Assembly (NCBI GenBank): GCA_002633005.1 | Contig: NMRA01000061.1 | Span: forward strand, 62,001-126,000 | Reading direction: 5' to 3' | From: Phoronis australis | Taxonomy: Eukaryota; Animalia; Phoronida | DNA: 64,000 bases | Shown here: positions 11,301 through 64,000 of the stretch, piece after piece | How positions within the stretch are numbered: the stretch's first letter is position 1 | How the letters are laid out: each line of letters starts with the position of its first letter | Program-made: the position numbers and the translations under genes | Notes under the pieces: model-generated | Told to the model about the DNA's origin: nothing | What the model saw: only the letters and a program-made list of their open reading frames with translations | Databases searched by the model: none

Positions 11301-14300
11301 TGACACTTTGTTATTCCTTGAGACTACGCTTTCTGCATAAGTTGGCATGCCATGACTACCCAACCTGTAGATCCCGGTCTCAAGCAGTATCAAAATGTCA
11401 AGTTTTGCGAAGCCCTGAAGTCGCCTCTTGTTTGACTCAATAGCAATTTAGTGCTTGATCTACATGTATACTAATTTCATTATGATATATATGAAGTTGG
11501 TTTTTGTGATGGAGGGCGGTTTAATTGTTGTTCTTTTGATGAACAAATAAATGTGAAATTTATATCTCTCTCACTTTTGACACCTGGATGAACAAATGTG
11601 AAATTTATATCTGTCTTTAACACTTGCAGGGCGGTACAACAAGTACTCCCGCACTCTGAGTCAGACCCCCTGGGTGGTTGATGGACACCGGAAGACTGAG
11701 TCATCAGTCCAGGAACTCATCTGTGAGAAACTTATAGAAAGAATTCGACCTGATGGTGAGTCATTGGTGATTTCCGCGACCTACTTTATGTTTTGGCTGA
11801 TTATGAGGAGGGATACTTGACTTGTCTTCTTTGTAAACCACATCTGTTACGCATTATAAGAAACTTTGCTTAAATAGACAAACTTAAGTCCAATAAATGC
11901 ATAGGCGTAGCTTTAATAAGTTACGCATTACAAGGTCATGCTGTTGTGTGACACTGTAATAGGTTTACGCACTTCAGATAGGTTGTATTTTGCCTTACTT
12001 AGGTTAAACCCATTGATGTGGTTGGATCTGACTTAAGTGAATTTCACTGTATTTTCTAAAATTGACTTCAGTTGTCATTCACTCTACTACGCATCCCATG
12101 AATATGGAAGTCAGTCAGCAGACAATCAGATTAGGGTGTTACCTATTGACAAGCGTGCCACGCAGCGGCGAGATTTGGCACATTACATCATTTTTATTTA
12201 GAAGTCTTACTCGGTGGCGTGATCGGCTGCACAAGTCCCCTTTTCTGGCAGTTATGAAGCATTAAAAATTGTGTTTCAGAGAAAACGAGGAGGCAAACTT
12301 ACGTGGACAAAATGAAACGTGCTGTGTGTTTCTGAATAAAAGGAATGTTTGAATCTACATTCACATTACCAGGGACTTGAAATGGGTCTGAACCCTTTAC
12401 AGTAAACTCTCTCACTAATTTCATACAAAAGTGATCACCAAAATTGTACTTTTTCAGTTTTCAATTTCATAACATTGCTGTAAATGCTCACAATCTTTCA
12501 AAACATTGTCTGTTGGTAGCCGTTGTGCTGAACTTTGATATGGAAAGGGATTTAGATTGTTATTGTACATCCTTCATGAAAAAAATGAGAAAATCAAAAC
12601 ATTGTCTGTTGGTAGCCGTTGTGCTGAACTTTGATATGGAAAGGAATTTAGATTGTTATTGTACATCCTTCATGAAAAAAATGAGAAAATCAAAATGAAG
12701 TTTCACATGTCTCTCATATTGTGTGTTAAAATGGTGAGATTTTTTGTAATGGGGGATTAGCGAAACAGTTGCAGTTGTTTGAATGTGTTTGGTGGAATTA
12801 CGACTGCTGGAAATCTTGTTTTGCAGAACACAGATTTTCATCTTCTGGCCGGGAAGACGTAGATGTTCGTATGTTAGGAAGAGGTAAATGATATAGTACA
12901 TGGAAATCAATTGTTCCTTTTGGGCACAGCCTCTGTCAGTCTATTATTACTGTTTGGTGTAGTTTGTTAACTAATTTAAATGATTATTTATGCTTCAAGT
13001 GAGTATGTTTTTGCCTTAGATAAAATCTCCCGAATTACAACTCTGATTACATTTAGATGTCTTTTTCGTTGTAGTTGATTTTAAACTATAGGTCATCTCT
13101 GTTGTTCGTTTAAGTGCTAAAGTCATTAAGATCTCAACTATTTTTTTTTCTTCGTCGTAAATAAATGTTTTTATGACAGGGCGGCCTTTCATTGTTGAGT
13201 TTGTCAATCCACGAGTTACGAATATCTCACAAGAAGAGCTAACAGGTTTACAAAAGGTATGGTTTTGTTAAAACAATTACTACTCTAAGGAACTGAAATG
13301 GTCCTGACAATGTGATGAACATCAATGATCAGAAATTGAATTTTGTGATTGGTGATCTTAAGCTAGACCTTTTTCTGTAATTCTGCTTAAAAATCCGTAG
13401 ATGTTGCATAAAATGCTAATTTTCCAGAGATGTTTAAATTGATGTATGGCAAAATCTCATCAGTTTAGGAAACAATTTGGTGGACAAAGAGAGTGAAATT
13501 TATTTTCCCCCATCTCTGCAAATTTTAGCTCTCAGAATTTTATTTTAGTGTAATGGACAATCGCAGATTTAGTGACACCCTGCATTATTTGGGCGGGAAA
13601 ACAGCCATACTCTCCTGCTATATTTTGTATGACTCTTATAAACAAATCCAAAGTAACAATAACTTCCTTATGGAATCAACCTCATGGACGAAAGCCCACC
13701 CTCAACTTCTTGAGAGTTTCGTTTATAAATACCAACGTTTAATTGAATGCCCGCCCTCCAATTTTTTAGTCATTGGATGTAAGTACCCAGGGTGGTAACC
13801 TGGATGAGTATGGTAGTTACAATACATTTTTTAAATTTCCTTTTTAGGCTGTAAATAGTTGTACACGTGATGTCCGCGTAAGAGATCTACAGAGGATCAA
13901 AAAGTAGGTGTGTTTATACACTAATTATCTATTAATACTCACATCAGAGAATGCCATAGTCTTTGGCATTAGTCTGATTTTTTCATCATTACCCACAATG
14001 CTGTGCAAAAGTAGTTCACTTGTTTCACTGTTGTCATCCTTACAATTATTTAGGTGCAAAATTGTTATTATTATTATGCCAGTGAAGTTCTACTCTTCCA
14101 AACTGAATTGAAATGCAAACATAAATAGTTGACCAGCTTACCAAGGTATGATACACAGTTCTTGAGTTGTCTGACTCAGATGTGTGTTAGCTGCTCGACC
14201 ATTTGAAAACTGACAGAGTTAGTCATGCAGTGCATTTTTCGACTTGTGCAAAAGATGGCAGTTGAAGTCTGGATGTGGCTTTTGGGCTTCTTCAAAGGAA

Positions 14301-17300
14301 GAAGTCCTTTAGTTAATGTTTGCACACTGTATGTCATCACTTGCTGATATGCTGTGGATGTTTTTTAGTGCGTTATAATTAATTAACATCTGGTGTCCCA
14401 TTATATCAAAGTAACACCGAATTATAACAAAAGACCACCGTATCAGATTTTTACTGTAACATAATTTCTTAAAAGAATTTGTGAAGACGGTCGCTTAGTG
14501 CGCATGGGACTGTTACTTGAATTTAAATACTTGTACTTTGTTGCAATGCTGGTCGTTCTCATGAAAACACTGTGTTGTATTTGCAATCTCTTGCGTGCGA
14601 CTGCCATAGGTACGAGGCCATTATTTGGTGAAATGGGCCAGTGAGACTGTAGCTCAGGGATGAAAATTGAATCTTGTCTCATTCATGTACATAGGACTAC
14701 TGGCACGATTTAGATTATTATTTGTTGTTTGCAGAGAAGAAACGTGTGTCTTGAAGGAAGGGGAGGAGGACAAGACAAAATCATATTTGGCGCAGTGTTG
14801 GTGTCAGCCTGCAATCACACAATCTGAGCTAGACAAGCTTTCAACCATGAAAGTAAGTCTATGTTACTTAGCTATTATAATTGTCGCGCTATTGGTGTGA
14901 GCCTGCGATCACACAGTTTGAGATAGACTGGATGTCAGCAATGAAAGTAGGTCCATGCTAGCACTGTTGGTGTGAGCCTACAATCTCACAGTCTGAGCTG
15001 GACCAGTTGTCAACCATGAAAGTAAGTCTATGTTAGCCAGTACAATTGTCGCACTGTTGGTGTGAGCCTGCGATCTCATAGCCTGAACTAGACTGGCTGT
15101 CATCGAGAAATGTGCGTCTATGATAGCAATCACATTCAGTAGTTAAAAGTTTTTAATTTTAATTACGAGACTTGTGCTGGCTTTACACCAACTCAAAATT
15201 AAACTTAAAGCTTTAGAATTGTCTTCTGTTTTTCTCAACTGTGCTTCAAAGCTGTCACAAGTTTCAGCTCTTTAAGTAGGGATTATTTTAATATTCATTT
15301 CCTAAAGTATATGTTTTAATACGGGCTCTCCTTGAATTTCTGGTGATTATCAGATATTCAAATATTTAACTTTCGAAAGAGCAGTATCTAATACTCAATA
15401 GAGCTGAATATATCGGAAGCTTCTTTTCACTCGTTCACAGGACATTGCGCTGAAGCAGAAGACTCCTGTGCGTGTACTACATCGGCGAGCTCTGTTGTTC
15501 CGCGACCGAATGGTGCACAGCCTGAGCGCACAGCTGGTGGACGATCACCACTTCAACCTGACACTGGTCACTCAGGCTGGGACGTATCCTTTGAGGTTGT
15601 TTACAAGCACTGACCATTTTTAAAAGATTTTTAGCAGGAGCCTCGTGCTGTGCAATTGTTTTTCCAGTTAGGACAAATTCCTCAGCGCAGATAATTTGTA
15701 GGAAAATCCAGCACTGTCATTTTCATGATTTTTAGAAACTGTTCATCTGTCATAAAACAACTTTTTTATAAAATGCTAATGTTTTTTTTAGCAATCTGGA
15801 AAGTTGGCAGCGTTTAATAAATAAAAAAATTCAATTCCTTTTCTATGAAATATTGAATAACTGCTGTATTTTTGTTTAATGTTTGGGGGTTCTTTGTAAT
15901 TGAAATACCTTGTGAACTTTTTCCAAATTTGCTACAGGGAATTCCCGGCTGTTATCTTTTCAATTTAGTAATACTCGCAGGCTTTTTTGACACGAGCGTT
16001 GTTCAGCCGTCGGTGTTAGAATTTAACTTTTTAACCAGAGGCATTTTTTTAGCTTCTAAGTTGAAAATCTTGGAGCAAAATCAAAGTCATAGACACAAAA
16101 CTATTTAGATCCTAAAGTCTGTATATGGTATTGCTGAGCATGTACCTTAACTGTAGTTAACCATTAAAACACGAGGCAATTTTTCAATGCTCATTATTTT
16201 GATTACACGTCATTGAGCACACGTCAGTCAGGATCAGCAAAGAACTGCTCGGTAGTCAATGCACAAGATTTGTACAATATTACACAAGACAGTGATGAAT
16301 TTCCTACTTAATATTAGAAGAAATGAATTTTAAACGACAATTACGTGTAATTAATTATGCACACAGTAAACGACTGAGTACCAGAATGTTGCAGGGTCGA
16401 GATTTTCAAAGCAAAAATGAAACAAGCCTCCACCCATTTTTCAGGTTTAGGTTACTTCACCAAAATCTATGTAAGAAGCAATGATTTGCTACTGGGATAA
16501 ATTTCTAGGCACAAATCCCTATTTTTAAGTGCATTTTGCTCCCATTAATTTCAAACACTGGCGTTTTCTTCTTTAAACACCACTTCATAAAGAAAAGCAT
16601 CGCTGGTCCGACTTAAATTAGAGACCAGCATCTCCTGGAAACACGACTTCTATTCGAAACTTTACGGTACACCTATCCCCCACCAGTTAGTGAACTTTTA
16701 TTGTCACCAGCTCTTGACCCAGCTGGTGTGTGTTTGTCCTTGTTATCACGTGAATTTTCACCTCTTTGCAGTTGGTCTTTCTCAACACTGTTATCAGTTC
16801 ATCATGTGTGACTATTACTAGGCTGTCATGTGTTCCTATATCCATCTGATAAATTGTGCATCGTTGTACCATGGTGCGTAGTTTTACCATGATGGTGAAT
16901 ACTTTTACCATTATATTGCATTATCCTTTTACCATTTTGTACATACCAGTAGCATAGCTAATGCGACAATAGTCACTTATAGGATTACCAAAGTTTGGTA
17001 ACCATTTTATTGCCTGTTATTTAGTTGTGAGAACTGGTTCTCAAGACACGACTTTTACAGCTAATGCAAATTTTCCCATGCTTATGGACCATATAAAGAT
17101 CTTTTTGTAAAGAAAATAGGTTGCAGAAGTTCTAAATTTAATTGAAATTAAGTTTATTTCTCTCAAACATGTATTATAGATAATGGGCGCTACTCAGGGA
17201 ACTTTCGAACGTTAACAAAAGAATGGAAATTTTTGCAACAACAATGATAGCACCTTGCTAATAAAAAGTGGAAAAATAAATTAAAATGCGTACTTACCAA

Positions 17301-17873
17301 ACTATCCATCTGTGAAGAGGTAGGGTATGGTGAGGGGAAAATATTTTAAAGACAGCCCTACGATAATTTAGAAACAAATTTGATTTCAGTACTGTGAATA
17401 TTTATTACCAACTCAAGTTTCAGGGTTCTGGTATATTTTGTATCTTATCTATAATTTAATCAATCCTCAAACTTGTGAAGGGCCCTTCATTCACATTATA
17501 AGAAATGTTTCCACAAAACCTGAAATTTTATTTAATTTTTGTATGTCCCTCCAGTTGTGACTTGGATTTTATGGGTGAGCAAATTGTAGAAAACATTCTT
17601 TCTGAAGTAAAAGTTCAAGTCATTCCGGTGTTGTTAATTTTTTAAATTTTAGCCAATCAGCTTGTGTTTTTCTCACTTCCTATCGCACAACAAACAGGAA
17701 TATTCTGTCTACTTGTCTACACATACACGCGGTCACGTGTTTTTGATTGCTGTCTTCCTTAACGCCACATCAGATATGTTAAAGAGTTTGTTCATGGCGA
17801 CTTTGGTCGTACTCAGCCCAACCTGAATACGATTCTTGGCAGGGAGTGCGATATTCTTGAATTGGATGTCAAG
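2385..17873 (+). CDS. PUS10: tRNA pseudouridine synthase Pus10 (3'-partial; terminal exon not found)
   Basis: Phase-consistent exons: 2385-2414, 3518-3655, 4097-4246, 5185-5271, 6600-6634, 7861-8034, 8371-8428, 8968-9041, 10712-10797, 11630-11755, 12827-12883, 13180-13256, 13848-13903, 14735-14852, 15441-15583, 17774-17873. Motifs: CPRC and CAVC (Zn site), GRYNKYSRTLSQTPW, catalytic SSGREDVDVRMLG, QKTPVRVLHRR, TQAGTYVKEFVHGDFGRT, DILELDV. Confidence 0.96.
2651..3182. mobile_element. MITE/non-autonomous TIR element in PUS10 intron 1
   Basis: ~75-bp imperfect TIRs: 2651-2723 (tagtagtagagatggtg...cttcatacgctggaagcttttcggctaattatgcttcacat) is the reverse complement of 3104-3182. No coding capacity. 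A related internal fragment occurs near 10387-10420. Confidence 0.75.
3705..3867 (+). repeat. Dispersed T-rich repeat; second copy at ~20584-20736
   Basis: Visible alignment over ~160 bp (ttggaatttttctatt...tttcgatttc...ttgatatccagtttc...ttatcattattt...aattttacac...atatttct). Confidence 0.65.
4677..4959. repeat. Minisatellite, ~59-bp unit, ~5 copies
   Basis: Unit ctataatgctgtatataggtcactctcacactcttctggccttgttgggtggcctctta repeated in tandem in PUS10 intron 3. Confidence 0.9.
6391..6527. mobile_element. Small fold-back (hairpin) MITE-like element
   Basis: Imperfect inverted arms: catatggacctcgggagag ... ctctcccttggtccatatg, extending outward to tgatca/gatatc-like pairs. Confidence 0.55.
7651..7718 (-). 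mobile_element. tRNA-derived SINE head or tRNA pseudogene
   Basis: The reverse strand reads gtcccgaTAGCTCAGTGGactag...GGTTCAAGTCCcagt, giving Pol III A and B boxes. The anticodon arm is degenerate, so it is not a functional tRNA. Confidence 0.6.
9221..9374 (+). mobile_element. tRNA-derived SINE (family copy 1)
   Basis: A box TGGCCTGGTGG and B box GAGTTCGATTC, followed by body tgctagacccttgagtgaggtctttggctcctcagctc and an AT-rich tail. Aligns with the inverted copy at 28873-28985. Confidence 0.75.
9616..9989. mobile_element. MITE, left-truncated copy of the element at 49473-49853
   Basis: Colinear match (gaactcaagataagtgtctattattctatgctcgagta...tatgcataaactataatgtattcg...gagaccgggcc) to the NPHP1 intron copy. 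Confidence 0.85.
10534..10667. repeat. Tandem repeat, 43-bp unit, 3 copies
   Basis: catgctgagagggggcagcacagatgggggatctatctaccat x3, just upstream of PUS10 exon 9. Confidence 0.9.
12498..12695. repeat. Near-identical ~99-bp tandem duplication
   Basis: tcaaaacattgtctgttggtagccgttgtgctgaactttgatatggaaagg[g/a]atttag...aaaaatgagaaaa occurs twice with one visible mismatch. Confidence 0.9.
14790..15130 (+). repeat. Four tandem copies of the 3' half of PUS10 exon 14 plus its donor site
   Basis: Unit tgttggtgt[c/g]agcct[g/a]c[a/g]atc[a/t]caca..ctgagct[a/g]gac...caaccatgaaa|gtaagtctatgtta starting at ~14790, 14887, 14961 and 15051. Confidence 0.85.
15584..17773 (+). other. U12-type (minor spliceosome) GT-AG intron of PUS10
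   Basis: 5' site GTATCCTTT at 15584. Branch site TTCCTTAAC at 17755-17763, ending 7 nt before the CAG, with no polypyrimidine tract. Removing the intron restores QAGT/YVKEFVHG. Confidence 0.93.
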
Positions 17874-18999
17874 GTAATACAAGTGGACAAAATGCCACAT
17901 GGTAGAAATCTCTTCCTTGATTTTATTTACACAACATAGTTGTCATACTTATGTTAAGGTTTATAGAGGCAATACACTGTGCTTGCTCAGTTGCTCTGTG
18001 TATGATTACGACTGTGACTTTTGTCCCTTAAGATTTTTAATTTACCTTATTTAATTGGTTTTGGTCAGGTATCTTTGGCCAGAACTTCTCTTTGGTCCTT
18101 TTTCAAATTTTTAAAGAGGAGTTCCATGCACTTTGTACCGTGAGGATGCCCTCATATTATGTTGTATTGAAGATTAAAAAATGTCAAATACAGGAATCAG
18201 ATGCTGCATTGACCCTGTAAGTGAGGTCATTGATAATGCCTGGTACATCAATACTTTGCTCTGTTGATTAAACACAGCACCAGGTTGTACATAAATATCA
18301 TATCAGTGGTATCTGTAGAACTGATACTTGACTATGTTGATGAGACACAACACAGATATGCATGAGTTATGCCTCGGAAATATTGGTAGATTTGATTATT
18401 TAATTTGTTAAGGTGATTGTAAATCACCTCGGTCACAATACTTTTGATTTAAACTGGTAACGTTATAGACACTTAGTCTCACTGTTGTTGAAGACTAGTA
18501 CTATTTCCCTCTAAGCTGTGATAAATATTCTGAATTGAGAGATAGTTATATTGAAGTGTAATACTGGAATTTTCCATCCTTTTTCAAGTTCAATAGATTA
18601 ATATCAAAAAGTGGTGATGTTTTTCCACTGGGTGATAGCTTGCTGCACTTTTAAGTATGTTGCACGTTGGTCTTTTGTTCAGTGGGCCTATTGCCTTTAT
18701 TACAGAAATAAATTGATTGATTGGTTGATTATGGAATTAGTCTCAAATTGTTGCTTCGTCCAAATACATTTGATTCCTGGGCTTGAAAAGAACCCACATT
18801 TTGTTATTATTTAAAACAAGACTTTACAAGTTGACTTGTCATTTCATTCGAGGAGCACGTCTCTAGAAATTATGAGAACTATCAATTAATTGCAATACCA
18901 AAATCAGTTCTGTTCTCATTCAGGAACTAGTTGAGATCAATTTAGAAGCAGTAGGTGATCTTAATCAAAAGCGGGTCTGTTTTTTGAGGGAACTCTGGT

Positions 19000-19000
<1 letters not shown>

Positions 19001-19085
<85 letters not shown>
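19001..19085. repeat. (CTG/CAG)~28 trinucleotide microsatellite
   Basis: Uninterrupted tgc repeat of 85 nt. Confidence 0.97.
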
Positions 19086-19087
<2 letters not shown>

Positions 19088-20163
19088 ATCAGACAAAGTG
19101 CTTGGAAGTGATATTTCCGTGAAATTGGTAGCTCCTGTGCAGCGTTTTTTGTTGATCAGTTAAGTTGGGCATTAGTTGTCCATAAGTGTCATACGGCTAC
19201 AGTAGACGCAGGAATCGCACGAAAACGTACGATCGTGCCAGTCCGTGAGATACCTCCATGCATTACAAGTGAAACGCGTGATCACAGTAGATTTTCTCTT
19301 GAATGTCTTTGGTCTACGGAAAGCAGGCCTGGATTGTGTTCCGTAGAGGCGAGAAACTCTCGAACACGCAAGACTTCCTGAGATATCACCATGCATTACA
19401 ATCTAAGCACGTGATCACGCAAGCCTTTTGCGTCTAACTCAGCCGATACTTTGCTATGTAGGTAACGCACACGTCTTGGGGAAGCATGGAACCAGTCTAC
19501 TTCCGTGTTATACATGTGACTAACAGTTTTTATCATTTCCGTTGTAGTCTGTGGACGTAAGTTGGCCAAAGTGCATAGACACTGATGAAGAATGTCAGGA
19601 TGCAAACAGCGAAGAACCTTTTGACAAGAAGATATAGCAGACAATATGGCCGACAAGTGAAATTCTATTTTGCCAAGTTTCTCCACAAAAATAAAGAATT
19701 GAATAAAAACTTAGTTTGTTACTAGCATGGCTTGTACTGTGTAGATGTGGTAAAATAACAGTTGCTAAATATCCGACTTCTGCAGTGAAATATTCAGCTT
19801 TTAGAAAAATGATAATTTTGGCAATTATTTTTGTGTAAAATAAGTGTAGAATTAGCAAGCTATATTTATTTTAACACTGAATGTGAATTACATTGTATGA
19901 CTGTGATTTTTCTAAATAACATGAACCCACATCTAGAAGACCACTTTGTTTTTGTTCAGCATTGGGCATTTGGCAATATTTATGCATTAAAACTCAAACA
20001 AGTTCAATAAAACCGGACCAAGTGATTTTGTATTAATGTGGTGAAAGTCTACTTATCTGAAGGTCTGAGTTCATGAACAAGAACAATCGTACCAGTGAAA
20101 TTGTCAAGTTTTGCGAAAATCTTCTTAGATATCCAGCTTAAGCCAGTTTTACTGTATATGTAG

Positions 20164-20197
<34 letters not shown>

Positions 20198-20215
20198 NNN
20201 NNNNNNNNNNNNNNN
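20164..20215. repeat. (CA)n microsatellite abutting an 18-N assembly gap (20198-20215)
   Basis: Directly visible in the sequence. Confidence 0.97.
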
Positions 20216-20962
20216 TACTTATGTGCTCGTTATACCGTCCTCCCGATTCGTCCCTGCGTCGTCTGCTGCTTTATAGCCAAAACCACTAGATGTATTTTCG
20301 CGAAATTTACGAACAAGTTCCTATCATGGATGTTTTTGGACGGATCCGACTACCAGTCTGCCCGTATTGGCGATTTTAGTTTTTTACTGCCATGTTTTAC
20401 TGTAAGAATATGTAGGACATTGTTGACAAGTGTGTACATGTAGCTATAAAATCTAGCTCCTAAAAGTATATGTTGTCCCAATGAAGAAATTCCGTAGAAT
20501 TCCATTTTTGCATTATCAGTGGAGCGTAACGTGCGGGGCAGCATCCTCGGCTGACCATCGATGGGTGAAGGTATTTTTCAGGGCTTAGAATTTTCTTCTT
20601 GTAAGAAGATTTCCACTTTTTTGTTTTCGATTTCCTCTTATTTGATTTCCAGTTTCTTCTTTTTCATCTCTTTATCATTATTTTTCATGCAAAAACGTCT
20701 ATTGATCAGTTAAATTTTACAAAACAAAATATTTCTATCACAGAAGCCTACTTATTTGGGGAACAATACATCACCTGGGAAATTTTCCTCTTTCTTGTCA
20801 TTGGTCATTCCAAGCCCTGATTTTTGCTGTTCAGCATAGGTACCCCACAATTGCCCCTCATGCTGACTACATGTACGTACTTTTCACGGCGTCATTTCAC
20901 ACCAGGCAACTCAACCTGAGAAATGCTTTTTAAATTCCTTCGGAAAGAAATAAGTCCACTCG

Positions 20963-21106
20963 CATGGGAGGCGCACCATAGGGGGCGGGGGCTATAGCCC
21001 CCCACTTTTTTCAGTGCTAGGCCCTACATGGTCTATAGGCGGTGCACCACAGGGGTGCTGAGGGGGCTTTAGCCCCTCCCCACTTTTTTCAGTGCTGCGC
21101 CGCCCA
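20963..21106. mobile_element. Short hAT-like MITE (copy 1; copy 2 at 43825-43966)
   Basis: TIRs catggg[a/c]ggcgca ... tgcgccgccca and an internal direct repeat ggggct[a/t]tagcccc...acttttttcagtgct. The two copies are colinear. The superfamily is inferred from the CATGGG-type end only. Confidence 0.75.
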
Positions 21107-22344
21107 CGAGTCTCGTTTATCAGTCGGAAACCATAATATAAACCCTAACCACTGAGAATGTTTTAATGTTATCGTAGATACATTTTCTGACGAAAAGCCA
21201 CGACGTATGAAAATTTGAGGCTACTCTTCAAAAAATAATGAAATTCGCAAATGTTGAACATAACCCAATCGAGTGTCCCCACCAGTTCGCCAACACCACC
21301 CCAAAATGTTAACCACCTCCGTTGCCACAATCTGGCCAGTACTTTATGTTGCGACGCACGTGACACGTAGATCCTGGAGAACTACTTAAATTTATGATGA
21401 TGGCTGGAACACCGTTCAGACCACACGAGGCGTCCTCAGCTCGACGGCACTCTATTACCGTCTTCATCTGCCACGGATCCCAAACTGATAACAGTCCCAA
21501 ATGACCGATGTCTCAACCTGAATAGAGAATGAAAACACCTGTCACTCTAATCACTGTTTATTTTTCTTACTTCAGAGGTGTCCTCAAGAATTCAACGGGG
21601 ATCTGGGGGATCTGCTCTCGTTGTTCCCCCGTAATTCTACACAAATATGAAAAGTGGTCGTGTCAAGGCTTTGAAGAAAATGTCTAAGAATAATTTCAAG
21701 ATCAATTTCGAGTTTGGAAATCGGACCCGGCCCGTGGTCTTCACCAGATTCATTTTGAAGCCTGTTCCCCAAAGGCACGTACTCGCCCGAACTTTTTCAA
21801 TAAGCGGAAACAAACGCCCACATCGCCTTTAGCGATTGGCGAAGTTCGCTTTTGTCAAAGGCTACACAAGCGTATTTCTTAACAAATTGACTTGGGAACT
21901 TAGCTAGAATCACCTGGTTCAATACCTTAATTGATCGAGAACCAGTTTCCAATGGAAAGTGGTATAGTTTTGGTGCTGTTGACTAGAGTACAGACAATCG
22001 GCGTCATTGCATGAACCGCCGAAGCTCCTGAAGAAAAAAAAATACCGCGCCACGTCAGGGCACATCAGGTGTCATTTTAAAAAAACTACCAATTCTCAAA
22101 AATTGACCAACCCAATTCTGTTACTGTTTTACGTCTCATTCGGCCGGCCACAACGTCCCAAAGTGTCACAATTTCAACACTGTGACAATTTGGGCCTGCA
22201 CAAAGCATCCCCCCTCCCCCAAAGATAAGGCGAGACGAAATCATTGCTGGCGCACTCCTCTCGCTTAGATTAAAATGAAAACGAAGTACACAATCATCAA
22301 AACCTAGACTATTCGTGCCTCCGGCAAGTCTTTAGAGTCACAAC

Positions 22345-25300
22345 ATGCATTTGGTGACGGGAGCTCAGGTGTTTATAGCCGCCTCAATGCTGGTGGTCTC
22401 CCACGCCCAGAATATTAACATTTTATGCATGATGACCAAGTGTCTTCAACAAAGCGTGCGCTGTGGTGCCTCCGCTACCTGCCGAAGCGCCGTGTCGTGT
22501 ATTGGAAAATGCGGAACAGACATGACCTGCACGTACAAATGTATTGCAACGTACGGTGACAAGACGTTCGATCTTTTCATTGACTGCGCAATGACCAGTA
22601 AGTAAATACTATACCCAGTGTGCCTCACCGTAGCTGCGGCGTTTTGGAATTCAGTTTTCATATTGCCCCAGAAGATTTATCAATTTTTGTGCCAACTACC
22701 ACTATTCCTTTGTGCATTTTACCGTTTTACCATCATCCGGGTGAAAAATATTTCCAATCTGGTAAAAACATTCGACCTAGATGAAATAGTTGAAAATACG
22801 TATCAACGTTTTGCGGTTAATTTTGGCAGTCTGGGTCATGGTAAAAGGCTTTGCGCGGGTTTTTAATATTCTCTCTTTTCACCAGCTCGTAAATGAATAA
22901 ATGCGATCAATTGAAATGAGCGGTTCGTAAATTACAGCCATGTGCGTATTCGCTATCTTTATTGTCAATTTTCTCAGTTCACAAAAAGTACAAATTATGA
23001 AGCTATTCTATAGTGACCACCATCACGTTATATTCGTTATATTACTACTTTAACAGAAATCCAAAAAAGCGATTTCAAAAATTCCTCACCAGTCACGAAG
23101 ATACATTTGAAGTAAAAGAGAATGTTAAATGTCTTCTTGATCGAATTCTCATTATTTTTAAAGGCGTCGCGCACCACTTGAAGATAATTATTGACAAATT
23201 TGGAAAGCGTTACAACTTGCTGTTTGACATTTTTACCTAAAATGAAGCGCCGGAAAGAGTATTTGTAAAAGCCTCAATCCGACACGCGCGAAGACGCATT
23301 TAAAGCTCATGACTATGGTTGGCCAATAGCGTCAATGTCTTTTTGCCGGCATTCGCGAAGAACGTGATGAAAGTTTTGATGAACACTAAATATAACCATT
23401 TCCTCAGAAGCCAATTCAGGATTTTAACCACAGGCCTTCGATTTCTATTTGAAAGCGAGTTTCACTTTCTGTGCTATTGGCCTGTTTTCGAACATTTACA
23501 ATGGAACAATCTTCTAGGTTTTCTTTTTAAAAATCGGGTAAAGAGAATATTTTGATAGACAAAAAACTTCAAAAACAACGTTTACATGACCGGGCCTTAC
23601 CACCAGGTCACATTCAGTATCACTGTGTCGTTACAAGAAAACAAGTGCATCGTTCCACCTGCCAACCCCCATCCCATACAATGTAAGAAGCCTCCTGTGG
23701 ACAGCTTGGTAAAAAACTTCAACATCACGCAGCTGTTGGGAAAATGGTACGTCATCTATGGCATGAACCCGGTTTTTGACTGCTTCAATCGCTCTTGGAG
23801 TTCCTTCGAAAAAGATGGCGACCAGAGTCTCGTGCTAACTGAACATTACCAGGTCATAACGCTCGACGGGAAACCAAAGAACATGAGTCAGAGAGAGGTA
23901 AATGTGAAGACAAAGGTATATGGGGTCAGTAATAAATCAGGATTGTTTTAAATCACCTACAAACCGCATTCCGTTAAAATACTTATTTAGACTACTTATA
24001 AAACTGTTCCCACTAATAAGTCGTTAACTGTTTAAGTTTGGACTGAGTCGAGTTTCGGGCTTTTGTAGAACTCAGTGGCTGTCATGTCATGAACAGAGTC
24101 CCTTTAAACAACAGTATTAGACCAGGACCGATTTTATCAACATTTCTTTCAGGCACAGCTTCTACTTTGAGTTAGTGATGTAGTTAGTTAGTTAGATTAT
24201 AAGCCATGCTGATAATTACTCACCAATAGCTCAAGGCTGGGGGTTCTCTTGACAAAATAGCTATTACTAGACCAGGAACGCACACAGTCTTATTTTTACT
24301 CCTCCATTCAGATTTAATAATTTCCATCCTTCATCATGTCCCAAAAAGAAAAAAAAAGAAAATAGAGCCTGGATGCTTTCAAGCATTCTATTTAGATATG
24401 AGCTCGTAAGAAACAGTTCCCTCACTTTGTGAATAGAGTCACACTATTGATAACTAGTATATTCCCTATTGTGAATGGAATGTCACGTGGATAGAACCGG
24501 TCCAGCTCACAACATGGCTTATGAATTCCTCAAAATCGATCCTCATCTCGTTTAAAGGGAGTGTCTGCAGCATGGCTCCTTCTGCTACAGTAAGAACCAG
24601 GCTCATCTATGCTGGAATATGACGTATCCGATTAGTGCACCGATCATGGCTTTTAGCCATAACACTTACCACTAGTTCTTTCCAAGTTCACCCAAATCAC
24701 TTTTCATTTGAGTAATGACAATAGTTGTCTTCATCAGAAATTTCAATTTCTTAGACTGAACGTATGCAGAAGCTTTAATATAAAAAAGAAAATCGTGAAT
24801 ATTGACGATTTCATTCATGGACAGTGTAGGCGTATGCAATTTACTATTTAGTAAAACGTTTCGCCATTTGTTCCTGATCACCAGTGAGCATGAAGGATGC
24901 ATCCAATTGAAATTAACATTGTTTTCAAACAGGATGTGTCTATACTCAGTACCATGAAAACTTTTAAAGGTAATTGTTTAAATTACCTCTAATGACCGCT
25001 CATTTTTAAATTCGGAAACCCATAGTCGCTTTTATATTGATGAAGTGGCTTAAAATCGACACCATTAACTTGTTTTGTCGATTACACCTATCGAAGTTTA
25101 TTTTATACAGAATTTCGGGTACGTCGACGTGAAAGTGTCCCCGTCCGTTTTTTACTTAAAATCCAAAGACCCGGGCATAGCGAGGGACGACGAATTTAGA
25201 ATTATCGCCGCCGATCCATCAGGTGCATACGTGGCGGCTTACTACTGCGGAGAAAGCAACGGAATGAGGTATGTTTTGTCGTTGACCTAACGAGTAGACA

Positions 25301-26480
25301 ACAAATTACTTGCCCGTGTTTTCCGTCCCCCATCTTTATATTTGAGAGAAACGTTGATGAAATAGCAGATTTTGTGTGAGGACAGACTGCCAAGATAGTG
25401 GCCAGAGGGTCGACGAAAGAGTCCGGGGTTTCAGTTACTTATCTGCTATAGACACATTCAGGCTATTTCAAAGCTGCTGTTTAAAGAAACAAAACTTCGA
25501 TTTACTTTCGTGCAGCTATAAAACTGCTGTCTTACTAACATGGGAGGTGGTTTCTGGGCTTATTAGTTGAAAACGACTGACTGAGACGAGCTAAAAGTTG
25601 GGCATCTGATCTCAAACCTATAAATGGTTTAAGGACTAACCTCATGACGATAAACGGTATCAATAAAAATTTGTATTTTGTCGAAATGCGGCTCTCTTGA
25701 AGCTTTTAATTAGTCAAGAAAAAGACCAGTAAAACCACCGTCGATACTTTTGTAGCCATAAGGCTTTAGATCACAACCACCATCATCGTGTGTAAGTTAC
25801 CACTACAGAAGTTGCTACTAAAAATTCCGCAAAATGCTTAATTCGATCCTCGCTGGTCCCCTACGTGCCTAGTAGCCAGCACGCTGGCGCGGCTACCGCC
25901 CCACCCAGCAGCACGCAGGCAACCAGCGAGAATTTGATCAGGACTCCTCGCGTGGACAAGTTTCACCGTTTTGATCAGCATAAACTAATTTAATTCCTAT
26001 CAGTTGAGTTTACGTTCACGAACCGATCTTCGGCCAGGCTAGGTGACAATGCCAGAGAGGAAAAAAAAAGAAAAAAACAACATATTTCACACCATCACAG
26101 CATTCAAACAAAAAACATTTTTCACAAAAATAAGATTCAAGACCCACGATTTGGACTACCGCGACGTATTCGGAGTCTTTTTGCATATTTGAGGAATGGT
26201 AACCGCTCACGGAAGGCGTTATAGCCGTATTGTAGCCGGGGCAATGCGGATATTTTAAAATACTTTTGACTGGCAAGTTCTTTGCCCGTTACTGACGGTT
26301 TGCCCGACAATTATCTATTTCAGATACGAAGGCGGTGTAGTGTATAGTCGCACATCAACACTAACCACAAGTCAAAAAGCATCTCTCGCTCAAGACTTGG
26401 GAAAACACGGACGGGATCTCAAAAAGCTATGTCAACCAATTCCAGCTCAACAGAATCTTCCAAAGACCATCTTCAACTAG
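22345..26480 (+). CDS. Violaxanthin de-epoxidase-like (VDE/VDL family) lipocalin with signal peptide, 275 aa
   Basis: Exons 22345-22597, 23638-23897, 25111-25268 and 26324-26480 (828 nt, intron phases 1/0/2, GT-AG, TAG stop). Contains a 10-Cys N-terminal domain, LVKNFNITQLLGKWYVIYGMNPVFDCF, RDDEFRI, YYCG, YEGGVVYSRTSTL and GRDL, colinear with recalled plant VDE motifs ([51 protein letters not shown], GRDF). Confidence 0.9.
25849..25930. repeat. GC-rich hairpin in intron 3 of the VDE-like gene (probable small MITE)
   Basis: ctcgctggtcccctacgtgc ... gcacgcaggcaaccagcgag pair with few mismatches. The inner gtagcc/ggctac also pair. Confidence 0.55.
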
Positions 26481-27650
26481 CGCTCTGAATTCGTCAGACG
26501 TATTTATTCCATCTAACGGTTAATGCAACCATTTGTTAGTTATTGTTTCAATTATTTCTCGCATAAGGTACTATCGAAGATAGGGATTTAAACTATTTCA
26601 TCAGACAAAAACGAACATTGTATTTTAGAAAAATATAAGGGTGTCATCTTGAATGTTTGTATCAAAACAAATTTGGCTTCACAGTCCTTGCTGATATAAC
26701 CCTGAGGCTGATTTCGATTTAGTCCGAGTCAGCATGGGCGTACACTTCCAACGACAGGAGTATAGGCGTTCATTTTCAAATCTGCCAACTGAAGATTCTG
26801 TATCCAAAAGCATACCAGCTGCATTTCAATTCAGCAAACTTAAAAAAAAAATCCAAATATCGATATTTTCAAGCCCAAGACAACTAAAAGAATAGAAGGC
26901 AAAGCCCAGAATCTCAGTGGATAGTTTTGTACCTACAAGCATCAATAATTTCGTGTAATGACTAGCCTACCAAGGGACTAATGGGTGGGGGAAGAGGTGT
27001 GTTGGAGCAAAACAAACAGGTTCGGGGGGCTTTACTCTTTATTTACATAATATGTTGCGGTAGTAGGCGTGATAGTAGTAGTAGTTGTAGTATTCGTAGT
27101 AGTAGTAGGTAAACTGAAAGAACCAAAAAAAACATGTTCAAGCTTACATGTTGCATAGGGCTCTACCATGTATATACAGTAACATTTAGGAGGACAACGC
27201 CCAAGTAAAATGATAACTGACAAAGGGTATACATTAATGACAAGCGTTCAAAACATTAAGTACACCTGAGAGAACATGAAAAACTAACATACTAATGAAT
27301 GCAAATAAACTGTATTGTAAGAAACATGAGTACTCACGCCAATATCGCCCCAAGTCCAACCAAAATTCCGAAGAAACTAACTATGTACATTGACGTTCAT
27401 CCACCATAAAACGTTTGTGGAATGGCGTTCAAATAGAGCGGTACCAGAATAAATAGTCAGAGAGAGAGCGACATCTGGCGCAAGAACTACACTGTAGAAA
27501 GTCCTCTACATGGCGGGAAAAAAGTGTATTCGTACGCCCAATCGGAATAACATAACGTAACGTAACATTGCAGTCTGCAGTAACAAGGTGTAACCCAGCA
27601 TTGACAACATACTATTGCCAAACGGCGGGGTACAGTCTGATATACGATGC

Positions 27651-27713
27651 CCGTATTTTGAGAACCAGATTTCTCCACTGAATAACAGGCATCAACTGGT
27701 TCTCAAAATACGG
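27651..27713. repeat. Perfect 18-bp inverted repeat with 27-nt spacer
   Basis: ccgtattttgagaaccag (27651-27668) / ctggttctcaaaatacgg (27696-27713). Confidence 0.9.
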
Positions 27714-28872
27714 CCACCTTATGTCGCGCTATTGCCCACATACATGGCAAATGGATGCCATACCAACCGATAAGAATAATACTAGAGTCAATACAAAAAC
27801 TGCATCATCATAACCTCCCTGATCACCCCCATGCAAATCCAAATTATCCATCAGAGACTATTCCGCAAAGTCAAATTACCCACCAGCAAGGTTACCACAA
27901 CCTGCAAAGCCAAATTGGCTACCCAAGAGAATACTACAAAGCCGAATCACCCACCCAAACGAGACCATATCTTAAAGGGCAAAATACTGAACTGCATCTG
28001 TGGCTCATCTTCATCAACCCCTCCAACGAGAGAACCCCCAGACCTTCACAGAAAGTGACTAAATGACTACAGGAATACTTCAGTCTGCATAAAATGTACA
28101 CAAGTTGTTATTGAAACAGATACAAATCCATACAGTTATTAATGTTTGACTAAATGCACTGATTGTTCAACAAAAGAAATATAACTAAAGGTACATCTCT
28201 CCAGCTAAAAACTTGTCACATCTCTGTCTAATAATTCTACACACTGCTTTTGAACACATGCAAACACAACTGCAGTATGCACATAGCACTGATCCTTTCT
28301 TAAAGATTCTCACACCACTGCTTTTAGCAATTCAGATTCAGAACAAGGCACAAACTTGTCAACCAAAGACACCACTAAATTGAAAACATTTAGTAAATTA
28401 CAGCTAATTTTGGCGTCATAAAAATTGAAATACATGTCAACATCACCAGCCACAGTTGGGTACACCAACATAAATGCACATTCATAAACTCAAAATGAAT
28501 TCCGTTAATTTTGAAAAAAGTGACGATACAATGAACAAGAATCATGTTATATAATTTGTTAAACTAAATTAAGCAAACGTAAAAACTTCTCCTAATACTC
28601 CTAAATACCTGATTTTGTTGTTGAGTACCTCACGATTCAAGTAGAAGAACGCGTAATTCAAGCCGTAACGTGTAACGTGCAGCTTTAAATCTTCGTACTA
28701 TCATACTATAGACCTGACTACAGAACCGTGGGGTTACTATCCAACTTTTAAAAAAAATAATTGCAGGTGGTCTGGTACACAATGTACTAAACAGGCACAG
28801 GCCGCGCATGTGGGCCCATTGCACTGATCACCTGGTACCATTTTTATGATTAATTAATACGTAGTTTAAAAC

Positions 28873-29986: not shown

Positions 29987-32900
29987 TCATTTTTCCGTGT
30001 AAACCAACTCTTCTGCATTTGGAGGGTTTTTAATCACCTCCACATAAGGAGGGGGTGGCTCCTGCTCAGTCAGAGGTATGCTGTTTGCATTGAGTGCCTG
30101 GCCCTGACTTGGTGGTGGCCCTTCGTTCCCTACAGCACTGTCATAAGTAGGAGGTGGCAGAAAGTCAGCCTGTTGGAACCTGCAACAAATGGAACATTAC
30201 AGCAATTTACAGTATGCTGTTGCCAGCCTGGCAGAGCCTACAGAAGGCAGGAACAGCAGTTTGCAGTATGCTGCTGCTACATAGAATTGCTGCAATGGGA
30301 CCATCCTCACACAATGACAGAGATCGTTTATTGTAACTTTCACTTGCAACATGCACTGCAGCAACTTGCATGCAGTTTACCTAATAATCAACAGGAGAGG
30401 AGAGTTTCTGAGAAACCCATTGTTAGTGGAATTTGTTGACATTGCATAACTATGGTTTTTGCCAAAGCAGTGATTTCTTTATTCAGCAAGAAATATTCAT
30501 TTCTTTCAATAATTGAATTCCACACAAAGTCAAAGTATTTTGAGGCTTTTTATTACAACAAAACTTAGTCATTGAATAGAACGTAACCAACATTGGACAC
30601 AAGATTTGTTTCTTGTGAAATTTATACTGCAGCATTCTCGCGCATCAATATGTCATTCGGTCCGAACTTACAATGCCTCGTGGAAGTTTTTTGACAGGAA
30701 GCTTTACAATTATTAGAGTTGTGAAAGTTTGAACAGCGTGAACAAATGGAGGGAGTCTGCGTTTAGATTTATGTTGTTTGCATCTTCAACAAGTCTGATG
30801 ACGTTCATATGGCAGGTCAGTCCTAGAATTTTGGCGGATATTTTTTCAACCTGTATTTTCTCCTATTTCAAATTGCATACTTAGCTACTCAAATACATGT
30901 GTTGGTAAGAGAGCACCAATTTAACTTTTGTGCCAATAACTAGCCTTACGGTTACAGGAAATCATTTGAACTTTGAGTCTGCACTTGAATTTCAAAGATC
31001 ATGGTTGACAGGGTGACTCTCTGGCTCAACAATTAAGTGCCCACACCTTGCTTTTCAGGCTACCCAGTGTTTCATTGCCATTAATTAGAATGTTTCGATG
31101 ACAATCATTAAGAGGATGTGTGATTTCGCAAAACAGATCATGGTGGACTCTGGACACGATTGCCAGGTGTACAGCGGGACATGCAGTTGTCAGCAACTGC
31201 GACGATCTAAACAAAAAGAAGAGAACATTGCCAAATGTCCACTCGGCACTCATACAAGCGATACAAGTGAGGTCAATTTTCCACTCCTATTTTCAAGCTC
31301 AGCAAAGACGAAGCAAATAAGAACACGGTCATAATGTAATTAAGCACAAACTTCAAAGTGCCAAAACAGAAATACTATCGTGTGAAAAAATTCATACAAT
31401 TTCAAGACAGTTATAAAAATGTCACCCTTTTCTAACAATAACCCAAGTTTAACAGCCTCTCCTAAATTATTATCAACCTTGTACCATTACTACAACCATA
31501 TAAAAGAGAAAATAAAAAATAAACACAAAACAAATCGTAACTGACACTTTACCTAAAACCATGCGACTCGTTCAGGTGACAGGCGTTTATTGCTTCTGAA
31601 CCAGCGATGATGGTGACGACATCACCTCTAGTTTCTGCTCCTTCAGATATCTGCAAGAAACATACCGAACTGTCTACCGGCACAAATCTTGTTGGCGATG
31701 GCCAAAGGATTACGGTAAATAGTCTCAAGTTAGGGACACTGAAAAATTAATTATTTTGCTTAAAGTTGGAGCTTTTAGAAATGGGCAATATTGGCAGTCC
31801 CAAATTCAGGAATTACGATTTGCAATAAATGGTTGATCACTTCCATGTTACACATTATGGATGCCTAAAGACATTGTGTTAGTGTTTCTATGAATTTATG
31901 ACCCACAAAGTTAAGTTTCAAACTCTGTCGATCCTAAATGCAGTGTCCGATACATGAGAAATATGACAAGCACCGAAATCATCCACAATCCAATCTTCAG
32001 AATCAAGTAACTTCAAATTTGAGACTGTTCCAAATTGGAGAAATTTTATCATAAACGCCACCAATGATTAGTAAAACAGAAAGATAACAGTATGGTAAAC
32101 CCTCACCACAGCCGAACACAGTGGACAAGTGGATCATTTTTTCACAAAAGATAAGGAGAGCAACATGTGCACAAGTCCGATCCAATCGCACCAAGAGATT
32201 TTATCTAAGTAGAGAGCAATCCAATCCCAGGTGAGAAGTCACCACAAAATTGGGCAAGTATGCTTCAACAAAATTTCACGTGAAGGGGTCATTTTTTAGG
32301 CATAGGTAGGTTACATGATTAAGATATGATTTTGACCATAAGGGGGTATTTTTAATGAAGTTTACTTTTTAAGGTTCAGTTTTGGAAAGTTCATTTCATT
32401 GGGGTCATGTTTTCAAGGCTCATTGATACCATGTACTCTGTGTCAAGTTTCATTGAAATCCGTCAGTCAGATCTCTTGACTAGATGTTACCCAGAAACGC
32501 TCTTCCCAAATCAACACTTGAAAAGTCCCTTGCCAAGAACAAAATGACCACTAGGAGGTGCTACAGTGATCGAAACCACAGGAAAATTCAATGGTGCTAG
32601 TGCATGATAACACATACTCCTGTGTTAAGATACGTTGAAAACCATCAATCCATTCTCTAAATATCACCTGGAAATGCTCTTGCCCAAAAATACTGAAAAA
32701 GACACACCTCCTGACCCCAGGAGCTGGGGCAGATTAAACAGCAGGACAAACTATTCTAGTGATGCCCTACACCATTGAGCCAAATTTCATCAAAATCTGA
32801 CCAAGAGTTTACGAGATGATATCAAGCAGACACCCTGACAATGTGACCACTATATGCAACTACATTGTGGACACATAAAAATGAAAATGGTCAATTGTGG

Positions 32901-62900: not shown

Positions 62901-63529
62901 TGCACGCTATGTTTACTGTTTCTCAAAATTGAAAAAGAGCAGCGCCATCTTCAGAAGTAATGAACAACTACTTGAATGTTCATTGTAAAATGATCATCGC
63001 TTGATTTGTGGCGAGAATTGTTGAATTTGATGAGGTATTTCTTAGTTTTTGATAAGTAATATTAGAAAAATTTAAAAATATTAATAGAAATATTATTACA
63101 GATTATTAAAATTTTTATTTAAACTATTAGAATTGTGGTATGTGTGCCTGAAATATAATTAGTTCTTTCGAAATCTCTTAATTCCATGACAGAATTCAGT
63201 TTCTATGAATTTTGTCCATTTCTATTTTCGCGGAAAACCAGGATCTTCTCATATAATAGAAAAATAGTGTCACGGTTGCTTTACCTCACACACACCACCT
63301 GTTGGTCACACCTTATGACCTAATTATTTTGCGTTTACCCGCACCAGTTTAAATTTACCTTCTTCACATATTAGACTATTAATGCCATGCAATAAAATAA
63401 TATTTGAAATATTAATTGTTTGCAGGGATGACGGCTGGTGGGAGGCTGAGAATGAAGAGGGGGAACGTGGTCTGGTACCTAGCACATATTTAAAAGAATA
63501 CAGTAAATACAGGGACATACAGACAGAGG
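47929..63529 (+). CDS. NPHP1: Nephrocystin-1 (N-terminal coiled-coil, acidic linker, SH3); continues beyond the window
   Basis: Core exons 47929-47994 (MPTKDRGPLFEAQREGDLFKKQ), 49370-49458, 50631-50691, 50973-51047 (VDEPGKVSDFEGKKEAELKRL), 51417-51594 (acidic), 59075-59211 (acidic), then SH3 exons 62341-62435 (YEAISDYQAREKGDLSFDEGEIL) and 63426-63529 (DDGWWEAENEEGERGLVPSTYL). Domain order and N-terminal motifs match recalled human NPHP1. Confidence 0.88.
49473..49853. mobile_element. PIF/Harbinger-like MITE, 14 nt downstream of the NPHP1 exon-2 donor
   Basis: ~85-bp TIRs ggcccggtctccaatc...gcgaactcaagataa / ttatcttaagttcgc...gattagagactgggcc. A second copy lies at 9616-9989. The superfamily is inferred from the GGCCC ends. 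Confidence 0.85.
51859..53797. mobile_element. ~1.9-kb non-autonomous TIR element in NPHP1 intron 5
   Basis: atagaccctattcacgccgac...tccaaaacgaggctcgctacgata pairs with tatcgcagtaagcctcgctttgga...gcgtgaatagagtctat. The interior is CpG-rich with G-run MITE fragments around 52830-52990. Confidence 0.75.
54203..58562 (+). CDS. Block of six in-frame phase-1/phase-1 coding exons inside the NPHP1 acidic linker (Ser/Pro/Lys-rich, likely disordered)
   Basis: Exons 54203-54292 (90), 54589-54960 (372), 55522-55716 (195), 56498-56599 (102), 56956-57159 (204) and 57372-58562 (1191). All are AG/GT-bounded, multiples of 3 and stop-free in the frame shared with the flanking NPHP1 exons. Confidence 0.72.
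59230..59640 (-). mobile_element. Degenerate 3' end of a CR1/L2-type LINE
   Basis: The reverse strand has a decayed gcatttggagccgtggccatggaatcat segment (resembling the L2 'AF..AAP..WN.LP' tail), followed by the stem-loop cagggaccacttggaaatcagtgtattcaatgaagtggtcaccc and an A-rich tail. Confidence 0.45.
61172..61189 (+). CDS. Candidate 18-nt NPHP1 microexon (ELEFEP)
   Basis: ttgtag|GAACTTGAGTTTGAGCCA|gtaagt. Frame-preserving and open in phase 0, with a TGC motif ~16 nt upstream. Confidence 0.5.
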
Positions 63530-64000
63530 GTAAGCTGGAATTAAAGGGGCACTCAACTCACTTTTGTGTGCCAAAAAGTTTTGAGTACAACCACTAGCTA
63601 GATCTTTCAAGGTCATATTGCATGCACACCCTGGTCGGACAAGCAATATCACTATTTCGGTGGGACATGTATGTGTTTTAATTGACCTCATTATGGATAG
63701 ACGAATACATCACATTACAATAGATTGTGGGTTGCTGGTCATACAGTGCAGAGTGAAACCAACCAATGAAAACCGAGAGCATACACCTTTGTTTCCAGTC
63801 AACTGGTGGCCTAGATGATGGATATTACACAAATCGCAAACCGTAAAATGGTCCTTGACAAGTGTTGCCCTGTTTTAGTTTGATGTTTATCAGGGGAGAC
63901 AATCCAAGTTCTAATAGTGAGTCACCTACTCTAGTTTCCTTAACTGAGTATGTCTGGGAGTGGAGCTTATGGATAGTTTTGTCAAACCGACAAGCTTAGT

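Follow-up and report, generated by a model that had tools for sequence, protein, structure and literature searches.

The 64,000-nucleotide stretch of Phoronis australis contig NMRA01000061.1 analysed here (positions 62,001 to 126,000 of the forward strand; hereafter the window, whose own numbering is used throughout) contains an intact gene, spliced and expressed in some samples but not in others, that encodes a protein of the violaxanthin de-epoxidase (VDE) family. Its coding part spans positions 22345-26480 on the plus strand and, according to RNA reads, comprises four coding exons and three introns that yield a product of 275 amino acids with 14 cysteines. This product is predicted to enter the secretory pathway and to be secreted, and alignment with its relatives places it in a secreted VDE-like branch that, as judged from sequence, is an undescribed subfamily of the known VDE family. 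An expressed, conserved and predicted-secreted branch in animals and other heterotrophs alters the picture of the VDE family as one confined to photosynthetic eukaryotes.

Structure and expression of the VDE-like gene

The gene model was built on RNA reads carrying the same species label, from three runs of one study (X6, X7 and X8) and one run of a second study (X5). An earlier reading made from the sequence only had placed the gene at 22345-25268; the reads carry it further, through a fourth exon to a 3' end near 26641, and define the following features.

22311-22344, plus strand: 5' untranslated region (UTR), without an ATG; transcript 5' ends at 22311-22314 in X6 and X7.
22345-22597, plus strand: coding exon 1; predicted signal peptide at 22345-22407 (amino acids 1-21) and nine of the ten cysteines of a five-helix Cys-rich domain.
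22598-23637, plus strand: intron 1, GT..AG, phase 1; joint in 90 (X6) and 101 (X7) reads.
23638-23897, plus strand: exon 2; C88, C100, lipocalin motif 1, D132, C133, N135, R136, S137, S139, F141 and E153.
Within 23638-23897, plus strand: exon 2 sequons N113, N135 and N166.
23898-25110, plus strand: intron 2, GT..AG, phase 0; joint in 51 (X6) and 72 (X7) reads.
25111-25268, plus strand: exon 3; D198 (25189-25191), F200, Y216 (25243-25245) and C217.
25269-26323, plus strand: intron 3, GT..AG, phase 2; joint in 73 (X6) and 66 (X7) reads.
26324-26480, plus strand: coding exon 4; Y231, lipocalin motif 3, C-terminal helix, C260 and stop, with no Glu-rich tail.
26481-26641, plus strand: 3' UTR; main 3' end near 26641, from read ends in X6 and X7.

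All three joints are also covered by a single 903-nt contig from X5, which additionally carries 25 loose letters similar to the 5' UTR. An in-frame stop lies four codons 5' of the start ATG at 22345, and ATGs further upstream fall ahead of the transcript start. The sequence-only reading had named a longer 5' exon as the observation that would count against it, and none was seen: transcripts begin at 22311-22314, and none of the four runs has sense-strand reads over 21253-22256. As there is no read-supported upstream exon, there is no added plastid leader. The Pfam VDE family (PF07137) matches three of the four exon frames, with exon 1 (E = 3e-8, 33.8 bits) and exon 2 (E = 8e-11, 42.3 bits) both above the bit-score cut-off of 25.7, exon 4 at E = 8e-4, and no match for exon 3. 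Two further elements were considered and rejected, namely a 37-nt micro-exon (24933-24969), which breaks the frame, and an exon 2 donor at 23916, which the RNA reads place at 23898.

A DNA run covers the locus in 30 of 30 bins and contains none of the three splice joints. Its depth reveals a multi-copy repeat in intron 2 near 24045-24410 (57-71, versus about 6-10) and a high-copy repeat in intron 3 near 25875-26057 (779). No further VDE-like copy was found in the window, and Rfam gave no match anywhere within it.

The gene is expressed in X6 and X7, as well as in X5 of the second study. The transcript level is about 60 reads per million. No exon reads were present in the roughly 19% of X8 that was examined and, given that X6 and X7 of the same study are positive, expression is sample-dependent. 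Among the coding variants listed, eight of nine are synonymous, versus a neutral share of 0.215 (21.5%; P = 3e-5).

A subfamily shared by animals and other heterotrophs

A phmmer search with exon 2 against 1.84 billion representatives returned 26 matches, for 20 of which source names were taken, and a profile search returned 15 matches among 1590 candidates, the same 15 being returned by one more protein search; a word-based search with exon 2 gave none among 20 candidates. The named relatives that have the full architecture belong to Haliotis, Crassostrea, Magallana, Saccostrea, Ostrea, Pinctada, Tegillarca, Glandiceps (a truncated model), Leptophrys vorax and Quaeritorhiza haematococci, so that the hosts comprise molluscs (oysters, a pearl oyster, an ark shell and an abalone), a hemichordate and two non-animals, namely a vampyrellid amoeba and a chytrid-like fungus. 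The Phoronis protein is 36% identical to its nearest homologue, P0001 (E = 7e-60), 35-37% identical to oyster proteins and 27% identical to one plant VDE. In the ESM Atlas, the VDE clusters for the abalone protein have 174 members (Mollusca commonest) and 95 members (Porifera commonest). Narrow pattern scans of genome, metagenome and viral contigs yielded no related locus and no bacterial copies, which is no evidence of absence.

Columns were counted over 25 alignment rows, consisting of the Phoronis protein, 20 secreted-type relatives (together the 21 secreted rows) and four plastid-type rows, of which P0021 and P0023 carry that label by our own assignment; near-duplicates, fragments and a frameshifted Tegillarca model were left out. 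The traits of the secreted subfamily, all present in the Phoronis protein, are a length of about 260-275 amino acids, a short hydrophobic leader, cysteines at the C100, C133, C217 and C260 columns, and no acidic tail. Genes of the subfamily have already been auto-annotated in RefSeq and are mentioned in passing in three papers, and we found no functional study of animal VDE-like proteins in the open literature, a search that did not cover subscription papers.

Several observations concern individual relatives. Full-length bivalve-type proteins of 264-276 amino acids (P0032, P0045, P0046-P0057 and P0077-P0089) are encoded on ENA/JGI contigs of up to 140 kb, where their genes may be intronless, unlike the three-intron Phoronis gene. 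Multiple Tegillarca copies (P0042, P0043 and P0010) and adjacent Ostrea locus numbers (P0090 and P0091) suggest local duplications in these bivalves. The Quaeritorhiza VDE-family protein KAJ3084678.1 (P0022) is labelled 'Vitamin D3 receptor' by its source, probably through a mix-up of the abbreviation VDR.

Predicted entry into the secretory pathway

Twenty-seven residues precede the first domain Cys, with a best nine-residue hydropathy of 2.69. From hydropathy and visual inspection, this leader has a small-x-small site following Ala21, where the signal peptide is predicted to be cleaved; the 275-residue protein has no further hydrophobic segment. The earlier description of a short hydrophobic N-terminus joined directly to the Cys domain, with no plastid transit peptide, is thereby borne out, and the leader supports the prediction of a secretory-pathway protein. 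Equally, the tail after the last Cys is 15 residues long with no Asp or Glu, in agreement with the reported lack of a Glu-rich C-terminal tail. These features are shared: leaders measure 22-31 residues in 18 of the 21 secreted rows (that of P0009, among the 18, being weakly hydrophobic) versus 92-167 in the four plastid-type rows, the remaining three secreted leaders being 73, 11 and 1 residues, and tails measure 5-20 residues versus 32-178.

The three N-glycosylation sequons noted previously (N113, N135 and N166) are present, although for this single protein their number is not above chance (shuffle mean 1.67; P for at least three = 0.23). Enrichment appears only at the level of the family, where 13 lineage representatives hold 43 sequons versus 23.4 +/- 4.5 and none of 3000 shuffles reached as high; the plastid-type rows (n = 4) hold 2 versus 5.7 expected by shuffling. 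The protein is probably N-glycosylated, and its working site would be the gut lumen, a digestive vacuole or the lysosome.

Active-site residues and cysteines

Residues were mapped onto Arabidopsis (At) numbering through an alignment to PDB 3CQN, checked against the positions given in section 9 of PMC13181403 (papers are cited by PMC number). All ten cysteines of the N-terminal domain are kept, C28 to C88 aligning with At C9 to C72. In the alignment, D132 corresponds to At D114, F141 to F123, D198 to D177, Y216 to Y198 and Y231 to Y214, whereas N135 replaces D117, R136 replaces C118, S137 replaces Q119, S139 replaces H121, Q156 replaces R138 and F200 replaces W179. The sequon at N135 therefore sits at a position of the plant dimer cluster (At D117). 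Across the secreted rows, the Y198 column is Tyr, the D114 column acidic and the 179 column aromatic in 21 of 21, Q119 is kept in 17 of 21, and the At135 column is acidic in 15 of 21.

The sequence-only reading had aligned the DD and YY of RDDEF and AYYCG with the catalytic Asp177 and Tyr198. The profile alignment to 3CQN does set D198 and Y216 on the catalytic columns, and both equivalents are kept; the outcome that this reading had named as counting against it, DD/YY lying outside the pocket, was thus not seen. The DD was, however, aligned one position off: At D177-D178-W179 matches D198-E199-F200, so that of the two Asp in RDDEF the second alone is equivalent to the catalytic residue. The motifs RDDEF and AYYCG were confirmed, as were the other cysteines reported in IQCKK, YYCG and KLCQP. 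The segment FDCFNRSWSSF had been read as losing the His and shifting the Cys. The His is indeed lost, but all 21 secreted members lack H121, and its loss is therefore nothing peculiar to the Phoronis gene; and no Cys has shifted, as C133 (At position 115) is present in all 21, and what is gone is the equivalent of At Cys118 together with its C-terminal partner.

Among the ascorbate contacts, D114 is kept (D132) and Q119 is replaced by Ser. The parts of the plant pH switch, namely H121, D117, R138 and the Glu-rich tail, have been lost. The earlier view of the protein as something other than a regulated de-epoxidase is supported.

The C100, C133, C217 and C260 columns are Cys in all 21 secreted rows. 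C100 and C217 occur in none of the four plastid-type rows and align with cysteines found in ApoD and in insect ApoD-type repeats. C133 and C260 are jointly present in 23 of 25 rows, being absent from the two true VDEs, while a Cys in the C118 column always goes with the terminal Cys, both being present in 22 of 25 rows and both lost in three (Phoronis, P0001 and Leptophrys). From this co-presence we infer a total of seven disulfides, of which five lie in the N-domain and the other two join C100 to C217 and C133 to C260.

Predicted fold

Exon 2 matches 3CQN in sequence (E = 2e-10), and structures were predicted for P0001 and for the N-domain of the Phoronis protein. The P0001 model (pLDDT 87.8) has 3CQN as its top match (Foldseek E = 9e-11; VIA Z 19.9, root-mean-square deviation 2.1 over 154) and ApoD as its next best (VIA Z 16.9). 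Together with the exon 2 match, this model, which is that of the homologue, points to a VDE-type lipocalin barrel in the Phoronis protein. The N-domain model (pLDDT 79.7) has five helices and no significant match among solved structures. A weak resemblance of the Cys-rich domain (22408-22596) to GDNF-receptor/GAS1 proteins was seen in 5 of the top 20 VIA rows, at a background-level Z of 3.2-4.5; with Foldseek giving 2v5e at E = 8.8 and Pfam no GDNF-receptor/GAS1 match among 35 members, this likeness is a lead only.

Phylogenetic placement

Full-length trees separate the secreted rows and P0021 from true VDE and P0023 at 100/99 support, with long-branch warnings. In approximately unbiased (AU) tests, which included two true-VDE rows and long branches, a single clade of the Phoronis protein with true VDE was rejected (p-AU 0.003), as was one of all secreted rows with true VDE (p-AU 0.014). 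With an ApoD-type outgroup, the four plastid-type rows group together at 81/65 within an open fork, and insect ApoD-type repeats as outgroup gave no resolution of the family root. Monophyly of the secreted subfamily is absent from the trees, although the AU test does not reject it (p-AU 0.45), and a single animal origin is neither shown nor rejected (p-AU 0.23). P0021, which is VDL-like by our own inference, is unstable and lies inside the secreted group, itself left open, in the full-length trees. The Phoronis row pairs with that of the chytrid-like fungus (support 86-89, no star), and this pairing may reflect long-branch attraction.

The sequence-only reading took the protein for a plastid VDE re-routed to the secretory pathway, with a locally altered active site. 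The present data go against this: the traits concerned are common to a wide subfamily, and the ApoD-type Cys pair, which is kept here and absent from plastid forms, is together with the AU rejections evidence against a re-routed true VDE. Most simply, the Cys pair would be an ancestral trait that was lost in plastid forms, and the secreted proteins appear to form a non-plastid branch that is sister or ancestral to plastid VDE.

Comparison with known VDE-family proteins and lipocalins

The closest known sequences are mollusc and hemichordate proteins named 'violaxanthin de-epoxidase, chloroplastic-like' or uncharacterised, including XP_046346709 from Haliotis rufescens, XP_022333299 from Crassostrea virginica, XP_055995233 from Ostrea edulis and XP_077994384 from Glandiceps talaboti, for which the literature searched describes no function. 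At 32-37% identity to the Phoronis protein, they share its length, short hydrophobic leader, ten-Cys domain, C100/C133/C217/C260, YYCG and the lack of an acidic tail. The Phoronis protein differs in having no C118/C249 pair, no Q119, Phe for W179 and a basic character; at the 177 column it has Asp, whereas abalone and Glandiceps have Glu and bivalves Ser.

Arabidopsis VDE (PDB 3CQN/3CQR, PF07137) shares the Cys-rich domain, the lipocalin barrel and the D114, F123, D177, Y198 and Y214 equivalents, but the Phoronis protein lacks its plastid leader, Glu-rich tail and H121/D117/R138/Q119 and has extra cysteine pairs. The algal VDL1 and VDL2 resemble it in keeping Tyr198, in an acid at 177, in a reduced or absent tail and in the cofactor-free chemistry that may be proposed by analogy; VDLs, however, are found in the plastids of chromalveolate algae and carry Glu at 177 (PMC13181403), whereas the Phoronis protein has a short leader and Asp198, and its gene has neighbours of animal type. 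VDR is described as lacking the Pfam VDE signature (PMC2483416, Coesel 2008), which the Phoronis protein has. By its description, the VDE-like protein 1451 of MAST-4 is also similar, being a VDE-family protein of a non-photosynthetic eukaryote without an N-terminal extension, which Roy et al. 2014 read as green-alga-derived (PMC3998028). ApoD-type lipocalins share with the secreted subfamily the barrel and two paired cysteines, one ahead of motif 1 and the other in strand G, but have no Cys-rich N-domain and only about 15% identity.

Animal members have surfaced occasionally, as an oyster expressed sequence tag (EST) placed at the root of a neighbour-joining tree (PMC2483416) and as a one-line mention in Manila clam (PMC5499747). 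In a 2026 review, VDE, VDL and VDR figure as belonging to photosynthetic eukaryotes, and the origin of the family is called an open question; its sections 8-10 mention no animal VDE-family member (PMC13181403).

Candidate functions

The reading that we favour, with a confidence somewhat short of even, is that of a predicted-secreted, cofactor-free enzyme acting on the epoxy-xanthophylls of algal food. We arrive at it because the acid and Tyr are kept, the pH switch and Q119 are lost, and the named hosts have algal diets, as documented for abalone and bivalves (PMC3093257) and for vampyrellids (PMC6775998). On the model of VDL1, the end ring of a carotenoid would enter the barrel, D198 would protonate the 5,6-epoxide and, without a reductant, the intermediate would isomerise or rearrange by epoxide/allene interconversion or ring opening. 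PtVDL1 needs no ascorbate to tautomerise violaxanthin and neoxanthin, and at neutral pH it retains about 20% of its activity (PMC7056318). In bivalves, fucoxanthin and peridinin from the diet are converted via epoxide cleavage and an allene-to-acetylene change, with enzymes that were unclarified as of 2011 (PMC3093257); the gene is a candidate for such animal carotenoid conversions, on an inferred function. A broader proposal is doubtful: it would make the proteins of this subfamily both the missing digestive enzymes with which algae-eating animals and protists remodel or detoxify algal pigments (epoxy-xanthophylls and possibly chlorophyll) and the ancestral form that gave rise to plastid VDE, VDL and VDR.

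A number of observations weigh against the xanthophyll-enzyme reading. The At 177 column of the 21 secreted rows holds Asp in three, Glu in five, Ser in ten, Thr in two and Gln in one, making it acidic in only eight, and the named bivalves carry Ser there even though epoxide chemistry is best documented in these animals. The core pI of the Phoronis protein is 8.7, atypical against 4.1-6.9 in the others. The algal-diet pattern covers about a dozen named species, among which the diets of Glandiceps and Quaeritorhiza are a matter of general background, and the orientation of the pocket is taken from alignments.

The strongest alternative, though an unlikely one, is a secreted protein that carries carotenoids or other hydrophobic ligands without catalysis, in the manner of ApoD or crustacyanin. 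ApoD, sandercyanin, RBP and crustacyanin are the next-best sequence and fold matches, the Asp177 acid is absent in 13 of 21 members, and a lipocalin role was proposed for the MAST-4 copy by Roy et al. (PMC3998028). A carrier sits less well with the polar pocket, in which the acidic D114 and the Y198 columns are invariant (21/21) and the At135 column is acidic in 15 of 21, with D198 kept in the Phoronis gene, or with the retention of all ten N-domain cysteines, which are required for VDE activity (PMC13181403).

The deep divergence of the protein, at 35-37% identity to its best relatives, would also suit an enzyme on a non-pigment lipid, such as another epoxide or isoprenoid, the algal-diet link then being incidental; as no such substrate is reported for the VDE family in the literature searched, we consider this quite improbable. 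Similarly low is our confidence in a protein that digests or binds chlorophyll catabolites, such as a catalyst that makes the non-phototoxic cyclopheophorbide enols (CPE). The two named non-animal hosts are, from general knowledge of their lifestyles, a vampyrellid and a chytrid-like alga parasite, and the profile matches include tetrapyrrole-binding lipocalins. CPE catabolism takes place in vampyrellid phagosomes; of the opisthokonts that were tested, only chytrids parasitising algae showed it, and the paper describes the genetic basis as unknown (PMC6775998). This is, however, a coincidence of two taxa only, and the main text of that paper includes no sponge, bivalve or Leptophrys; moreover, the characterised VDE-family members all act on carotenoids, and no euglenozoan or dinoflagellate homologues are among the named matches.

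That the protein is a true de-epoxidase, using ascorbate in an acidic lumen, is highly doubtful. This reading would account for the kept D177, Y198, D114, F123 and Y214 equivalents, but not for Q119 and H121 becoming Ser, D117 becoming the sequon Asn, W179 becoming Phe and R138 becoming Gln, nor for the missing Glu tail and the rejected clade with true VDE (p-AU 0.003). Finally, an algal contaminant or pseudogene, the former having been suspected for the oyster EST by Coesel et al. in 2008 (PMC2483416), has next to no credence, and contamination is very unlikely, given introns that are spliced and hold high-copy repeats, DNA-run coverage of 30 of 30 bins, a contig shared with PUS10, with DUF4706 and with an SH3 exon resembling nephrocystin, GC content at third codon positions of 0.35-0.63 versus 0.39-0.65 in the neighbours, coding variants that are mostly synonymous among those listed, and a C. 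virginica relative whose gene is placed by RefSeq on a contig of 48.9 Mb.

Neighbourhood of the gene

Exons of PUS10 lie at 7838-17936 on the plus strand, and a DUF4706 gene, which we take to be C1orf198-like, at 1-2103 on the minus strand; DUF4706 is mainly metazoan. Towards the other end are an acidic exon at 58966-59223 and an SH3 exon at 63319-63594, both on the plus strand, the best PDB match of the SH3 exon being nephrocystin 1. Taken together, these neighbours make an invertebrate animal the very probable host. Opposite-orientation reads at 26800-27530, present in both X6 and X7, suggest that a convergent transcript from the minus strand ends near the 3' end of the VDE-like gene, and upstream of these reads lies a proline-rich minus-strand frame at 29990-30196. 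Dispersed high-copy repeats at 20600-21110, 27530-27780 and 25875-26057 occur in many transcripts as well as in DNA, and a long trinucleotide run at about 19000-19085 is followed by a dinucleotide run at about 20150-20215 that adjoins an 18-base N gap.

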